Assembly: GCF_022045235.1 (NCBI RefSeq)
Contig: NW_027266266.1
Location: forward strand, 23,994,001-24,058,000
Direction of reading: 5' to 3'
Length of the DNA stretch: 64,000 bases
Source: Haliotis cracherodii
Taxonomy: Eukaryota
Part shown: one piece after another, positions 493 to 61,872 of the stretch
Layout: each line of letters begins with the position of its first letter
Position numbering within the stretch: the stretch's first letter is position 1
The notes under the pieces: model-generated
What the model was told of the DNA's origin: nothing
Databases searched by the model: none
Seen by the model: the letters and a program-made list of their open reading frames with translations, nothing else
Program-made: the position numbers and the translations under genes

Positions 493-786
493 TGCTTATG
501 TTAAGATGGCCTGTGTGGAATGTGATGTCAGTGGTTTGAGGACGCAGAATGGATGTCTGTTATCGCCGTGTACATTGTTTTGTCAAAACTCGGACAGCCC
601 TACTAGAGCATCTAGAAACTCGCAATAAAATTATCCATCGCAAAGTTGGTGTCTTGTTATTATTTGCCTGAATATTATAACACTTCTGTTACTGCTGTGA
701 GTATATTGCAGTACGAACGATACTATGAATACTTCTTTTGCTAAAGTGTTTGCAATACGAACCTAACCATGAACATGTCTGGTGTG

Positions 787-1031
787 GACCCGAGAAGATC
801 CGGGTTAGAATAGGCCTTCAGCAACTCCGTCTTGCTGTAAGAGGCGACTATGCTTGTAGTAAGAGGCGAGTAATGGGATCGGGTGGTCAGGCTCGCTGAC
901 TTGCTTGCATGCCATCGTATCCAAATTGGGTAGATCGATGCTCACGATATCAGTCCGGACACGATTATGACCGCCGTCATATAGCTGGAATATTGCTGAG
1001 TGCGGCGTTAAACAACAAGCACACAAACAAA
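787..1031 (+). mobile_element. SINE family A, near full length
   Basis: Starts GACCCGAGAAGATCCGGGTTAGAATAGG, contains GTAAGAGGCGACTA (duplicated), ends in the shared 3' module and AAAC tail. Confidence 0.85.
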
Positions 1032-5369: not shown

Positions 5370-7760
5370 AACTTTAATCTCAACGTTTTCTATTTTTCAC
5401 ACATAAGAAGAATATGAAACTCGTCTTCAATCTCCTGGTTGGTACACTTAGAACATATATTATTCCACAAAATCACTATCCTTGGTTCTACGATATTTAT
5501 TGACAAGGAAGTTATGGAGAGATATTCTAAATTTACAAAGAGCTCTCAATAGAGTTTTATCTTGTAATATGCTTAAATATTTTTCTGGTTGTAACAATGA
5601 TTTAATACCAGCATAATGCTTGAGAAAGTGTGAAGAGGAAACTTGTTGGTTCCAGTTTGGCTGAAATATGTGTAATAATCTTTGTTTAAATTTGAGCAAA
5701 AATAGTGTTTTTCATACCAGTGTCTTGTGAGATCCATACAAAGGAAAATCCAGTATTAAATAATATGCTTCTTACACCAGACACCCAATTTGTTTTCCCT
5801 TCACCATCTAATTGCTTTAGCATTTTGTAACATTGAAATAGGTACCTGTGACCATTTTTAATAATTTTATCCAATATGTAGCAACACGCAGCTGGCTTTT
5901 TTACGTATATATTACAGCGACCAGTTTCAACAAGTACTGCCTTATTTGAAGCATATTTACCAATGTATTAAAACTGCTTAAAATACAAAGTGTGAACTTT
6001 CTCAATGGATTCTAAATATTTAATACCCCATATTTCCGAGCCGTACAACAAAATGGGTAGAATTTTACCATCAAATATCGAATTTGCTGTTGAAAATTAG
6101 ATATATTTGTTTTTCTTGAATAAGTTATAAACAGGAAACTTTGCCTTAGATGCCTGAGCGCTAATGTCTTACAGGCCATGGACCAATTTAATCTTGGGGA
6201 CATTAATAGTCCTAAATACTTATAATAACTTGCAACTTTTAAATGTTTATCACCATACATCCAATTTTCACGCTTCGATACAATTCCACCATTTCTAAAA
6301 ACAATAACATTTGTTTTGTCAAGGTTTACTTCTAAACCCCACTTAATACAAAAGGTTTGCAATACATTAAGCTGTTTCTGCAAGCCTACCAGTAGGGCAC
6401 CAGAGCAACATCATCCGCGAACAGCAAGAACATAATATCTATAATATCTTGTGTCACAAACAAACCATGATGACATTCTTTGTAAATTTCAGAGACAAGA
6501 TCGTTTACAAAACAGATGAATAAGACTGGGCTCAAGATGCAACCTTGACGAACACCACTGGAAGTAGTAAAACAAGGAGTTATACCCGAGTCAGTTTTAA
6601 TACATGCTTTAATTGAGGAATACATATTCTTAAGAACTATTGACAGTTTCCCACGACATCCTTTAGTGATCAATAGGTACAGCAGTTTTTTTTCTATCAG
6701 CGTAATCAAAAGCTTTACGGAAATCAACAAAGGCGCAATAAAAACAACCTCTAGGTTTACATAAATATTTTGAGCAAGATGACTGTCAACTGTAGAATAT
6801 CCAGAGTCCAGAGCGAAACCCTGCTTGAGCTTCAGATATCATAAATTTATTTTCAAGCCAAATTATAAGTCGTGTTTCAACAATAGATGCAAATAGTTTT
6901 CCCATGACATATAAAACAAATGTACTTCTGTAATTGTTTGGTTGACAGACATTTCCTGATTTGTATAAAGAAATTGTCATTCCAATATTCCATGCATCGG
7001 GGAAAATACCTGTATCAAGGATTTTATTGAATAAAAGCAACACATATGGTACTAAAAATCTCCTGATATTTTGTAAAATTTTGGTGGGACTCCATCAACG
7101 CCTGGTGCTTTACCATTTTTAAGACTTTGTAATGCCTCCCACACTTCTTGTTCTGTGAACTCACCAGATAACAATTCGTCCGTGAATGGAAGATCATTAC
7201 ATTCATCACACATATGAGTATCTAAAAAATCAGATAATAATAGATCAAATTCTGTTTTTGCCGTCATGCACATCGGATTCAATAAATTCTGAAAATAGGA
7301 AAGCCATACATTAGGAGTTATAGAACTGTCTGGTGATTTTGTACGTGACGGCTTCTGAAGTATTTTCCAAAAAGTTTTACAATCTCCATAATGCGCTGCT
7401 AACTTAATTTCTTCACTCAATTTTATGTCATACAGTTTCTTCTTACGTTCACAAATCTTTTTAAATTCTGCTTTTGCATTTATATATCTGTGCAGGTTCA
7501 AATCACACTTATGATTTCTGAAGTTGTTGAGGTATAAGTACTTTCTAGATTTCATATTATGACACTCGCTGTCAAAACAGGCTTGCTGAAATACACGACA
7601 TTTACTGGACCAAGAACAAACAGCGCCAGCACTTGTAGCACAACATATCACAATGTCAGTGAGCTTAGTAACTGCTGCGTTCCGGTTATCATTCAAAATA
7701 ACTGCGAACTCATTAAACATTTCTCCACTTAATGCATTACCGAGATGGAGGTGGTAGGAA
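5370..7760 (-). pseudogene. Decayed non-LTR retrotransposon ORF2 (RT plus C-terminal CCHC), RTE-X/L2-like
   Basis: Frameshifted fragments carry KAPGVDG, YKSG...PNNYR, EAQAGFR, GVRQGCILSPVLF, LLFADD, NLDKT...FRNGG, YKYLG and CSKC...EDEFHILLMC; clade call is tentative. Confidence 0.9.
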
Positions 7761-7832
7761 ACAACTGGCTCGGGAGGAAGTCTATATTTTGGTACAGGGG
7801 TTAATGAGGCAGATGCAGTGTTGACATTATTA

Positions 7833-8007
7833 CAGTAAAGTACGTTTATAACGAACACGCTTATAACGAACTGACGGATATAACGAACTGATTTTTTAGT
7901 CCCGACTATTTGCTATAGTTATGCTGTTTATATGCTTATAACGAACCACGGTAATAACAAACTAAAGTTGGTGGTCCCTTCGAGTTCGTTATAACCGTAG
8001 TTTAATG
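7833..8007. mobile_element. Tc1/mariner(pogo)-type MITE with TA flanks
   Basis: TIR CAGTAAA(C)TACG(G)TTATAACGAAC, TA on both sides, internal TTATAACGAAC repeats; second copy at 51721-51896. Confidence 0.85.
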
Positions 8008-10984: not shown

Positions 10985-11244
10985 TGTGTTTGTTTGTTTG
11001 TTGTTTAACGCCACCCTCAGCAATATTCCGGCTATATGAAGGCGGTCTGTAAATAATAGAGTGTGGACCAGACAATCCAGTGATTGACATGAGCATCGAT
11101 CCACGCCATTGGGATATGATGACTTGCATCAACCAAGTCAGCGAGTCTGACCACCCAATCCCGTTAGTCGCCTCTTATGACAAGCATAGTCGCCTTATAA
11201 AATTACGGCAATGGGTTCTATTGTACCCCGGATCTTCACGGGTA
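10985..11244 (-). mobile_element. SINE family A
   Basis: Reverse complement of the family A consensus, from the GTTT tail to CCCCGGATCTTCACGGGT. Confidence 0.85.
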
Positions 11245-11273
11245 CCATTATGACATGACACGAGTGGTCACGA

Positions 11274-11437
11274 GTGAGTGAGTATGGTTTAATGCCGCTT
11301 TTAGCAATATTCCTGCAATATCACGGCTGGGGACACCAGAAATGGGCTTCACACATTGTACCCATGACGGGAATCAAGCCCGGGTCTTCAGCGTGACGAG
11401 CGAACGCTTTAACCACAAGGCTACCCGACCGCCCCGA
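11274..11437 (-). mobile_element. SINE family C (tRNA-Asp-like head, ACTC tail)
   Basis: Head reads GGTAGCCT.GTGGTTAAAGCGTTCGCTCGTCACGC.GAAGACCCGG on minus; flanked by TGGTCACGA duplication. Confidence 0.85.
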
Positions 11438-12217
11438 CTGGTCACGAATAGATGGAAGTATCTCGGTATAGATTTAATACTCTTACGTGTGATAGAGCTT
11501 AAGGGATTATTTAGGCGATTATAGCTGTTATTTATTGACGTAAAAAAAAGTAAATCTCCATCTTGTCGGACGTCGGATAAGAAAAATAAGATTGGCCATG
11601 GGTTGAACGGATGTGGAAGGTATCTCCATCGTACGTATATAACGAGTTCTTAAAAAAGTGCATTTGACATACAAGAAAGCTTTGCCGCACCACGTACTGT
11701 CCTATGGAAATAATTGTGAAGTAGGATTCGCTTGACATACGCTGTTAGGAGTGGTTAGTAGCTACCCGTGCGGCTTGAGGATGTCAACATTGTCACCATT
11801 ACGTGTTTTTTTGTTGTTGTCGTGAAGAATTGACTTAAATAAAAAAAGAATTAGTTCATGGGGGAGGTATCAACGTAAAACCCTGCTCCACAGGTTGGAC
11901 CGTCACTTATAATGTCAAAAGGAGAGTTATCTCCCCTCGGGACAAAAATATCGCCAACAGTGTTGTCGGCATCGACGCAAATATAATGACAATTATTACC
12001 CACGCGCCATTACGTAAGGAGGTAATAACAAAAAGCAAAGAGAGACATGTCTTCCTTGGAATTTGACTAGTAGATACGCGAATCATCCATAAGTTTGTAT
12101 CAAGAATGGCTACCCAATTATTCAGGTTTTTTTCTTAGAAACAAAATTTATTAATACATGTACATGATTTACATTTGGATAGATACCTGCTCGCGTCTTC
12201 AATTGCATACGCACTTC

Positions 12218-12448
12218 GACCCGAAAAGATCCGGGTTAGAATAGATCTTCAGCAACCCAGGCTTGTCGTAAGAGACGACTAACGGGATCGGGTGCTCGGT
12301 CTCGCTGACTTGGTTGATGCATGTCATCGTATCCCAATGGCGAGGGCAGATGCTCTTGATATCACTGTATTGTCTGGTTCAGACCGCCGTCATATAGCTG
12401 GAATTTTCTAAGTGCGGCGTTAAACAACAAACAAATACAACAACCAAA
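12218..12448 (+). mobile_element. SINE family A, full length with TSD
   Basis: TSD CATACGCA(C/T)TTC at 12206-12217 and 12449-12460. Confidence 0.9.
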
Positions 12449-31679: not shown

Positions 31680-31955
31680 AGCAATATTCCAGCTATATCA
31701 CTAGAAGAACTAGTGACTGATATCATGAGCAACAATTCAAGCAGTCTGAGTAGGTTGACATGCAGTCAATCAAGTCATCGAGCCTGACCACCGGATCCAT
31801 TTAGTCGCCCGTACGACCAGCAGAGATTGCTGGGGACCAATTCTTTGCCGGAATCCCCACTGGGAGACCAGAAACAGAGGGGTTTTATTATTCTGGTAGC
31901 ATTTGTGATGTATAGAGCGATAGGGACCAATTCTAACCCCGAATCCCCACATGAG
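31680..31955 (-). mobile_element. SINE family A, variant subfamily (TGGGGA/TCCCCA head), head present twice
   Basis: Minus strand reads GTGGGGATTCCGGCAAAGAATTGGTCCCCAGC...GTCGTACGGGCGACTAAATGGATC. Confidence 0.7.
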
Positions 31956-32351
31956 GACTGACATATGGCATACCGTATAATGGCGTCGTGAGAGCGGATC
32001 TAGTTCCGCCAGGGTTGATCAAACGGACTCTTCTGGTCTCTGTCATTTGTCCCTGGTGTGGATTATATTACCGTTAGGATTGGATAAACAAACCAATAGT
32101 GACACTGAATAGGCATCAAGAATTCACATCTGGAAAGATATTTGGACGAGAAGATAGCGAAGTTACGACCCGGATGAAAGGTCACCAAAGGAGGTTACTT
32201 GCTGAGGTGCTCGGGTAGCTTAGTGGTAAGGGTGGTAGCTCGCCACGCCTAATAGACGGATTCGAGCCGTCGCAACAGCAAGCTACGCTCTCACTTGGAT
32301 TGCATTATCCTAATTAAGCTTATGCGCCACCAATTCGATTTCTAGCTTAGT

Positions 32352-52189: not shown

Positions 52190-52965
52190 GAATAACTGTC
52201 AAATAGTGATTTTACTAGGTGTTCACCAACAATTAAGCGTATCCTGCCACACCGGTGGCACCAGTCACAAACACATGCAAAGGCAAGTAATGTGTTCACA
52301 TTGAAGAACAAACAAGAGAGCGTATTGGAATAGGGAATTGCAACGGACATAATTTGTGATTTATAACATTTGGAAAATGTCCTCCCTATGTGAACCATAG
52401 AACGTCTTAACAGCGTTATGAAGTCCTTGAATGTTGTAACGCTGATCAAATAACTTTTGAGCAAGAGTCGTACAAGAAATCTTTTCAGAAAAAGCATGCT
52501 CGATTATATTTCATAAGTTGTCAAATGTAACCAGAGGCTTGAGCTTCTGGAATAACGCTCGACTTGAAGTGATACATGTAGTTGACTATTGGAAAGTTTA
52601 AGTCATCTCGTTTGTCATAAAACCTTGTGGATTCTTGTCTCTTTGAATCTGTATGCATATATATATATATATCTAAACATGAACCAGATGGGGTGGTTTC
52701 ACTGGTATCTTTAATTGCTAGGGAATCGACTATTTGACCATTATTGAACGATATCAGATCATCGATATACCTTAGGGAATCGACTATTTGACCATTATTG
52801 AACGATATCAGATCATCGATATACCTGAAGGTAAAGTTAAACTTCGGGACTTCAGTCCGTGATTTTATTTTCCAGTGTGAGGATGACCCGCCAGCAGAAA
52901 GAAACAGATCAGCAAGAAGGGGGCACAATTGGTGCCCATGGGGGTGCCTACTTCTTATCCCCAAC
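52190..52965 (-). pseudogene. Penelope-like element RT C-terminal remnant
   Basis: PMG..CAPLLADLFL (frameshifted), FNFTFRYIDD, IKDT, FYDKRDDLNFPIVN motifs typical of PLE reverse transcriptases; 54-bp internal tandem duplication. Confidence 0.8.
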
Positions 52966-53038
52966 TTTCACGTATATGTTATCTTTGAGGAAGTCTATCA
53001 TTTCACTGGTTTAATTGCGTTCTTTTTTTCTGTTGCAG

Positions 53039-53253
53039 TGTTGATTATGATAGCGGGGCTCCTCATCTACCCACTTGGATTGGGGTCCAAATCCTTCCGC
53101 GAGTACTGCGGCAACATGTCTTCCGCCTACTACTCAGGCCAGTGTCTGATTGGCTGGAGCTACATGCTTGGAATTATGGGAACTGCCCTCGCAATCTTCT
53201 GTCCATTCTTGTCACAATTCACAGACATGAAAGCAAGTGAAATATTCGCCTGA
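53039..53253 (+). CDS. LHFPL7: LHFPL tetraspan family (LHFPL7/TMEM211-like), coding exon 2
   Basis: Pyrimidine tract plus TTGCAG acceptor (AG 53037-53038); phase-1 join gives VLIMIAGLLIYPLGLGS...YCG...Y.SGQCLIGWSYML; total CDS 579 nt = 192 aa. Confidence 0.9.
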
Positions 53254-55829: not shown

Positions 55830-56465
55830 CTAGGCCAATTCCACAAAGAGATCTTAGCGCTAAGACAATCGTTAATTCTTTGTTTACACTGCTTACGACA
55901 TTTGTAGATGTAATAGCGTTTTGCAGACTGTCGTTCCACAAAGTTGACTTAGCGCTAAGACGAACGTAATTGTATTATGAAGAATATGTTATGACAGACG
56001 TAGCTCCAAGATCGCTTTTTGGAAGGGGTCCCTTCGGCAATATAATCTTCGTGCTTAGACGACCGTAAGTGTATGTTTGTTTGTTTGTTTGTTGTTTAAT
56101 GCCGCAATCATCAGCTATATGACGGTGGTCTGTAAAATAATCGAGTCTGGACCAGACAACCCAGTGATTGATATCATGAGCATCGATCCACGTCAGCGAA
56201 CCTGACCACCCGATTCCGTTAGTCACCTCTTACGACAAGCATGGGTTGCTGAAGAAGACCTATTCTACCCCGGATCTTCACGAGTCGTATGCAAAAGTAT
56301 TGGTTTTACTATCGTCGTAGCTACGATTCCGCCGCAGCGCTAAGACAATCTCTAGACAAATGGTTGCCGTTGCACTATACGATCTTAACGCTACCACGGT
56401 CGTAAGTACGTTTGCATTAAAGTAAAATTGCGTCTTAGCGCTAAGATCGTTTGTGGAACGTACAC
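55830..56465. mobile_element. Cluster of short hairpin MITEs (CTTAGCGCTAAG core), one interrupted by SINE A
   Basis: Repeated TTCCACAAA..GATCTTAGCGCTAAGAC and its reverse complement. Confidence 0.6.
56076..56286 (-). mobile_element. SINE family A
   Basis: 5' end GACTCGTGAAGATCCGGGG on minus; GTATG on both flanks. Confidence 0.85.
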
Positions 56466-61446: not shown

Positions 61447-61640
61447 CTAAGTAAGATCTCTGGAGACAGACATGTCCTCGCCAGGGCGGCAGTACTGGCT
61501 GACTCAGGTAAGTGAATGGTGTTTTACGCCGTAATGCTACAGTCGAGCAGGGAGTACCAGCACAGGGCACCAGGCGGGATACGATCGTCCTGGTGTAGCC
61601 CGGTGTCTCCATGTAAATAGAGGGTATTCACAACGTGAAA

Positions 61641-61872
61641 ATCCATGGGGATTCTGGGTTAGAATAGGTCCCCAGACACCTACATACATGCGTGTTGTAA
61701 GAGCCGACTAAATGGATCGGGTGGTCAGGCTTGCTGACTTGGTTGATTGCATATCATCGTAGCCCAATTGCGTGGATCGATGCTCATGATGTCGACCACT
61801 GGATTGCGTGGTTCAGATTCGATTATTTACAGACCGTCGTCATATAGAGCGGCGTTTAACAACAAACAAACA
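61641..61872 (+). mobile_element. SINE family A, variant subfamily
   Basis: ATCCATGGGGATTCTGGGTTAGAATAGGTCCCCA...GACTAAATGGATCGGGTGGTCAGG...(AAAC)n. Confidence 0.82.

Follow-up and report, generated by a model that had tools for sequence, protein, structure and literature searches.

A predicted pseudoknot module at the 5′ edge of Haliotis SINEs, also present in LINEs and viruses, as a candidate exonuclease-resistant RNA

The tRNA-less SINEs of the Haliotis cracherodii window (the whole 64-kb stretch of DNA that was analysed) begin with a compact module that is also present at LINE 5′ ends and in the 3′ UTRs of RNA viruses. Comparison between families indicates selection on an RNA fold in the SINE head, with structure kept rather than DNA sequence. 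The head is predicted to form an H-type pseudoknot at its 5′ end, comprising stem S1, a one-base loop, stem S2 and a loop containing AGAAT, followed by a capped stem. Where no ribozyme precedes it, the module marks the 5′ edge of the element. We propose, with a probability of about 0.45, that the module is a block to 5′-to-3′ exonucleases, similar to the xrRNAs of viruses, that would define and protect uncapped ends. The wider proposal is more tentative still: the module may represent a new class of exonuclease-resistant RNA, moved among animal retroposons, RNA viruses of unrelated groups and a large DNA virus, that would give SINEs and LINEs a third route to a 5′ end, by stalled host decay and with neither promoter nor ribozyme.

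The features of the focal SINE and the other heads in the window are itemized in Table 1. The focal copy spans 12218 to ~12448 (~240 nt) and, as the sequence-only reading had noted, is flanked by target-site duplications (TSDs) of 12 bp, identical at 11 of the 12 positions. A head model gave nine matches at E < 0.005 and one weak match in the window, so that family heads do lie at or near the places that this reading had listed. The 15-mer quoted there as the common start is exact in none of the window copies, and the five copies named differ from it by 1-2 letters. In the genome (1.18 Gb) a 33-letter pattern of subfamily 1 has 6,658 exact matches and a pattern of subfamily 2 has 206, versus 0 for each reversed pattern; part of these matches sits in tandem arrays. 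Such arrays of SINE heads (L004, L441-L445, L453-L456, L466-L468; G000:C15:4863105-4864548) have 48-52-bp units that end at the hairpin and resume at the 5′ stem. A common variant has 22 nt of the conserved hairpin duplicated; it is found in the window at 787+, 11244- and 49629+ and at many further loci.

Table 1. Positions of the focal SINE, its predicted head structure, other heads in the window and the predicted LINE ribozyme
Feature	Position	Strand	Basis or remark
5′ target-site duplication, 12 bp	12206..12217	+	TSD comparison
Focal head, model match	12215-12295	+	head model
SINE 5′ edge (GA), 6 nt ahead of one-base loop L1	12218..12219	+	edge in family copies
S1 5′ strand CCCG, predicted partner 12232-12235	12220..12223	+	
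One-base loop L1	12224	+	T in the family, A in the focal copy
S2 5′ strand, partner 12244-12250	12225..12231	+	6/7 pairs in focal copy
S1 3′ strand CGGG	12232..12235	+	
Pseudoknot loop L3 with conserved AGAAT	12236..12243	+	invariant in 20/20 rows
S2 3′ strand	12244..12250	+	
P3 5′ strand CCC and internal loop GCT; P3 partner 12284-12286	12256..12264	+	weak in subfamily 1
Conserved hairpin GTCG-loop-CGAC	12265..12279	+	family loop UAnRAGG, last G to A in focal copy
TAA and P3 3′ strand	12280..12286	+	
SINE body, origin unassigned	12287..12384	+	unmatched in 10 LINE loci examined except at other SINE copies
3′ tail common to Nimb/I LINEs and tRNA-headed SINE, then CAAA-type repeats	12385..12448	+	
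3′ target-site duplication	12449..12460	+	TSD comparison
Head of other copy, subfamily 1, doubled hairpin	784..864	+	head model
Head of other copy, subfamily 1, damaged	11151..11247	-	head model
Head of other copy, 5′ part lost	23755..23832	+	head model; absent from the sequence-only list
Two neighbouring subfamily-2 heads	31788..31958 (31788-31868, 31875-31958)	-	head model
Head of other copy, subfamily 1, doubled hairpin	49626..49728	+	head model
Head of other copy, subfamily 1	56206..56289	-	head model
Head of subfamily-2 copy	61637..61724	+	head model
Predicted HDV-like ribozyme of the LINE	L429:102-158, L430:65-121 (G000:C6, C80)		

The 5′ edge of the SINE is sharp, lying at GA-CCCG in 88 subfamily-1 heads with random flank beyond. 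No tRNA was detected in the window, and Pol III A and B boxes were absent from both of the SINE copies tested, as previously claimed; the tRNA-headed SINE L431, used as control, has both. By these three observations the element is not a tRNA-derived SINE of the usual kind, with a tRNA head and Pol III boxes. A tRNA-headed SINE is located at 11280-11440 (-) of the window, with a 3′ tail common to the LP-type SINE and the LINE. The window also includes a broken LINE reverse transcriptase fragment (6386-7912, -) and an exon-like frame (52792-53253, +) that presumably resembles an LHFPL-type membrane protein.

The family has very likely been described already, and is most likely the LP-SINE of Matetovici 2016 (PMC4758252); we infer its identity with Hdi_LP. 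The sections of that paper on which we draw describe 255-bp LP-SINEs in Haliotis and other molluscs, the first ~70 bp of which are common to Nimb and RTE LINEs. The published Hdi_LP and Hmi_LP have TSDs, no tRNA head, a length of ~255 bp and the ~70-bp head shared with LINEs. The present SINE likewise has no tRNA-derived head, is flanked by TSDs, is near the published length and shares its head with LINEs of the host genome (78-81% identity over 64 nt). In the same sections Nimb-17_LMi, I-3_DR, RTE-9_CPB and the scallop MESC SINEs share the ~70-bp head, and the scallop head given in the supplement (the 'Nimb-17 homology' block) agrees with the present one in its AGAA loop and hairpin motif and has a different, fully pairing S2. 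There the head is read as a promoter, with L1Tc cited as analogy and its role left to experiment; the partner LINE is left unidentified, and these sections contain neither a fold nor a virus. The bipartite non-autonomous LINEs, as presented in the portion of PMC5786205 used here, are similar in joining a LINE 5′ piece to a LINE 3′ tail. The SINE differs from them in that its 5′ piece lacks the terminal ribozyme of the LINE and its body does not come from that LINE.

The fold is based upon a sequence-only alignment of 20 family representatives, hand-chosen among the loci examined, whose rows are partly related; heads that contain large inserts or have lost their 5′ part were excluded, as was locus L381. 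Both sides change at all seven base pairs of S2, which is paired in 85% of cells over the 20 families. S1, formed by the 5′ CCG with the CGG after S2, is paired in 88% of cells and includes two swaps from G-C to C-G. The GTCG/CGAC hairpin is 100% paired and almost invariant, and the AGAAT loop, as the sequence-only reading had it, does not vary in any row. The inner stem of that reading also stands, with the change of both arms from AA/TT to GG/CC. Its other pairings fared less well. The proposed outer stem is paired in 48% of cells over the 20 families (permutation z 0.9), and the pseudoknot drawn between a loop and AACCC in 55-72% (permutation z 0.7). The change to 'CCAT' in the outer stem of subfamily 2 is CpG decay, the site being G in 47% and A in 41% and the preceding base C in 51% and T in 32%. 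What remains of the selected fold put forward there is an RNA structure common to LINE 5′ ends and tied to SINE 5′-end formation, and not the fold as drawn.

The strand 3′ of the hairpin pairs with the linker 5′ of it, forming P3 (permutation z 3.0, 5/2000), while the same strand set against the module 5′ end gave z 0.9. The permutation test fitted the registers of S1 and S2 row by row and 2 of its 21 rows were misplaced, so that its values for S1/S2 (z 5.4 and 11.0) are inflated and the sequence-only alignment is relied on. Nested minimum-energy folding of subfamily 1, a method to which pseudoknots are inaccessible, takes the outer stem, which competes with S1. Folding z-scores of single copies are weak (-1.6 for the focal copy). 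Rfam returned no match for the 64-kb window, for its 11150-12450 stretch or for the viral loci, and the Rfam 15 ribozyme families gave no match up to E 10 for the window stretch and five viral loci, in keeping with the earlier view that the head fits no known ribozyme family. Within open-access text (subscription journals and Repbase/Dfam lie outside this scope) we found no paper on the fold, on its presence in viruses or on its site behind an HDV-like ribozyme.

A LINE whose 5′ UTR carries the head, for which the sequence-only reading had proposed a search, is present in the host genome. The ORF1 protein from a module-headed locus gave 126 scored matches, and 28 of the 30 LINE loci examined have one common 5′ end. 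Ten longer stretches contain ORF1, most of them with an ORF2 of ~1,230 aa, and in the one copy scanned ORF2 has endonuclease, reverse transcriptase and RNase H domains. Three of these ten stretches end in a SINE-like tail, identified with our own tail pattern. The LINE is assigned to the Nimb/I clade from its ORF layout, its ORF1 motifs and the sections of PMC4758252 used, and not from a tree.

The first 56 nt of the LINE match an HDV-like ribozyme helix by helix, with a P1 that includes G1-U, P2, a 3-bp P3 and L3, together with the GG and the GCUAA strand; the element begins at G1. Rfam returned three HDV-type matches for this 5′ end, all below the gathering score, the best being HDV-F-prausnitzii (E 0.0024, 27.5 bits; gathering score 44). 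A pattern for the HDV-like core has 707 matches versus 2 in the genome. Young copies of this Nimb/I-type LINE are predicted to start with a minimal 56-nt HDV-like ribozyme having almost no P4, and the module adjoins it without a spacer. In the portion of PMC5786205 used, six LINE clades have HDV-like ribozymes, Nimb and I not being among them. The host LINE has a 56-nt start similar to those of R2, RTE, Ingi/L1Tc and LOA (PMC5786205 and PMC3383444, both in part). It differs in that ribozyme and module are separate units, with the ribozyme upstream, and in that the SINE lacks the ribozyme, an HDV core being found in 0 of 86 SINE copies versus 10 of 10 LINE controls.

Two HDV readings of the SINE head itself were rejected on the same count. 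One takes the head as the nested double pseudoknot (P1-P2-P3-L3-P1.1-P4), for which there is also no Rfam match. The other is based upon GACTAA, a motif thought at first to be fixed; in LINE copies the letters following CGA are CCAA in 21, CTAA in 19, CAAA in 7, CCGA in 7 and others in 7 (n = 61).

Some further features of these LINEs were observed. Their 5′ ends are densely clustered on both strands at G000:C2:20.8-21.7 Mb, with dozens per 1 Mb, and ORF1 matches are also clustered at C6:4.3-4.8 Mb and C23:35.5-35.9 Mb; these clusters may be silencing clusters or nested insertions. In Nimb-type 5′ UTRs from several animals (L222, L224, L399-L428) the module is immediately followed by a further conserved stretch, GCCGTGGGTTGCG. 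Four sequencing runs, for which the data are contigs in which RNA ends cannot be read, have loose ends at the first base of the LINE. At L429:161, 194 and 200 there are other loose ends, where the ribozyme, or the ribozyme with the pseudoknot, runs into different sequence in other runs. This suggests that further element families may share ribozyme or pseudoknot heads.

The position of the module relative to the ribozyme was counted. A total of 580 exact LINE-type modules were screened for T at two upstream places set by the end of the ribozyme. Five lacked T at both, and four of the five still have the ribozyme, leaving 1 of 580 without it, with a filter expected to overlook about half of the copies of this kind. 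Self-cleavage by the module, or a transcript beginning at the first base of the module, would shed the ribozyme, so this count argues against both self-cleavage and a promoter. No HDV core lies upstream of the module in 86 SINE copies or in 22 other loci. The element edge is located 6 nt before L1 in three repeat families, namely subfamily 1 (n = 88) and two metagenome families (n = 25 and 26), their first bases being G, A and G. In the LINE this position is occupied by the last base of the ribozyme.

Pattern scans placed the module in at least 120 metagenome-contig loci, in four animal-like contigs within bacterial assemblies, and in eight viral contigs, of which one is a duplicate, one a DNA virus of 212 kb and the other six belong to distinct RNA viruses. 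Animal retroposon DNA in bacterial assemblies (L221-L224), including LINE ORF1, is probably host contamination. Three of the RNA-virus contigs are tombus-like (RdRP_3), one is toti-like (RdRP_4) and one has a tetravirus-type capsid, while the sixth has RdRp-like motifs discerned by eye and no Pfam match. In L624 (= L096 252-3056 -) an RdRp-like ORF with no Pfam match has SDD preceding D..CD and SG..T..N, an order that by eye is permuted. In all six distinct RNA-virus contigs the module is on the coding strand in the 3′ UTR after the last ORF, starting 6 to ~120 nt past the last stop codon and lying 14-119 nt from the contig end. Two of the six have the module in tandem, with differing stem sequences; one of these is L628, which was not included in the model. 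An intact module is located between two genes in the 212-kb contig (L625:6977-7057), the size of which resembles that of an insect iridovirus. Loose scans of viral sequence gave mostly chance matches: in one, with at least 120 matches, the conserved hairpin loop was present in none of the top-ranked among the matches listed, in a second the pseudoknot was missing from 26 of 31 matches, and a third gave at least 120 loci and one new virus, 20 of these loci being searched again. Membership of L381 and L531 is doubtful, and neither is included in the counts. The s2m element is a short structured RNA that occurs across the 3′ UTRs of unrelated viruses and has look-alikes in animal repeats; the module differs from this mobile element in sequence and in fold, and heads retroposons.

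An exonuclease block is the best match for an activity that places a 5′ end at a constant distance from the fold, that an upstream ribozyme hides and that viral 3′ UTRs tolerate. In its favour are the covariation of S2 and S1, the 6-nt edge in three families, the 3′-UTR site, the viral tandems and the count of 1 in 580. According to the portions of the literature used here, plant-virus xrRNAs depend on their pseudoknot and halt Xrn1 at the foot of P1 (PMC6299227), while xrRNAs use a ring of 15-16 nt and the flaviviral ones often occur in tandem (PMC8374639). The xrRNAs of flavivirus classes 1/2 and of dianthovirus/luteovirus, as far as these portions describe them, resemble the module in having a pseudoknot with its first helix at the 5′ edge, a 3′-UTR position, tandem copies and a downstream stem-loop. 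The 5′ end of the module, as judged from insertion edges, likewise lies at the base of the first helix. In the predicted fold, which is not a 3D model, the loop round the 5′ strand comprises 12 nt plus the closing pair in most rows and up to 18, compared with 15-16 nt in solved xrRNAs (PMC8374639). Unlike the described xrRNAs, the module has no sequence or Rfam match and no three-way junction; it is a simple H-type knot with a one-base loop, and occurs in animal retroposons.

On the exonuclease reading a SINE copy would be transcribed within a host RNA, from an intron or by read-through. Decay by Xrn1 or Xrn2 would trim the host part and stall at stem S1, creating the SINE 5′ end, and the trimmed RNA would be copied by LINE proteins via the common 3′ tail. 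In the LINE the ribozyme would cut first, leaving a 5′-OH end. Such ends are not known to be entered by Xrn enzymes, for which reason the LINE would keep its ribozyme and hold the module as backup. That HDV-type cleavage generates a 5′-OH is taken from the part of PMC3383444 used. In viruses the module would yield a small non-coding RNA from the 3′ end, in the manner of known xrRNAs. For the invariant hairpin, docking on the pseudoknot or the binding of a host factor is the probable role. Several points count against the reading: resistance alone explains neither a near-invariant hairpin 40 nt downstream nor the retention of the module by a LINE that has a ribozyme, and in viruses the resulting RNAs would have a length of only about 100-280 nt. 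Against the fold are the few compensatory changes in S1, the competing outer stem and the related alignment rows.

Rather less probable is an element for cap-independent translation, or for binding a ribosome or factor, which would be a cap surrogate in the LINE, a 3′ enhancer in the viruses and, for the SINE, a hook to ribosomes engaged in making LINE protein. This would suit a module that immediately follows a ribozyme whose cut gives an uncapped end (PMC3383444, in part), and its presence in 3′ UTRs of tombus-like viruses, a family that uses 3′ enhancers (PMC6299227, in part). The conservation of the hairpin sequence from molluscs to viruses and the module between two genes of the large DNA virus point the same way. 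However, it does not explain sharp edges at a fixed distance in elements with neither a ribozyme nor Pol III boxes. Translation and exonuclease blocking could coexist as joint functions.

A new class of self-cleaving ribozyme, cutting 6 nt before L1 in the corrected fold, seems improbable. The fixed 5′ edge is what cleavage would give, the fold is compact with invariant unpaired bases, and LINE-like loci of other animals (L224, L111, L141, L123) have no HDV core upstream of the module; in the LINE the cut site would lie in the last P2 pair of the HDV fold and might be masked. Yet the upstream ribozyme is absent in so few LINE modules, and in RNA viruses a cut would remove the 3′ end of the genome. 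GACTAA, which is reminiscent of the catalytic strand of HDV, is variable among the LINE copies, and the first base differs among families. The ribozyme-like release suggested in the sequence-only reading is weakened accordingly, since in the LINE the module stays uncut behind a separate ribozyme and the viral modules lie in 3′ UTRs.

The same LINE and virus objections apply to a site for a host endonuclease (tRNA-like, of RNase P type) or another host processing factor, which we regard as less probable again. It draws on the hairpin loop, which is UAnRAGG in 61 of 61 loops (from 66 LINE insertions) and has T-loop-like spacing in every one, with U at position 1, a purine at 4, A at 5 and two extra bases. 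Against it the A at position 2 is off the T-loop consensus YGNRA/UUCRA (bioRxiv 2022.12.26.521914, in part), and a possible T-loop is retained as a lead only. Least probable of all is the internal RNA polymerase II promoter ('LP', Matetovici 2016), for which the 5′ position and the precedent of L1Tc Pr77, promoter and ribozyme at once (PMC3383444, in part), are outweighed by compensatory pairing that indicates RNA, by RNA viruses without a DNA stage, and by the loss of the upstream LINE ribozyme on starting at module +1, which is almost never seen.

How exact 5′ ends arise in SINEs that have no Pol III head is a standing problem, and it is this that the module, as a candidate exonuclease block, addresses. 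The LINE found here supplies the partner missing from the sections of PMC4758252 used, and brings Nimb/I into the clades with a predicted HDV-like ribozyme. With ribozyme and module side by side, this host LINE is a natural control. PMC8374639, in the part used here, names eukaryotic genomes as still to be searched for such folds, and with a module common to retroposons and RNA viruses the question of the 5′ end becomes testable on an 80-nt RNA.
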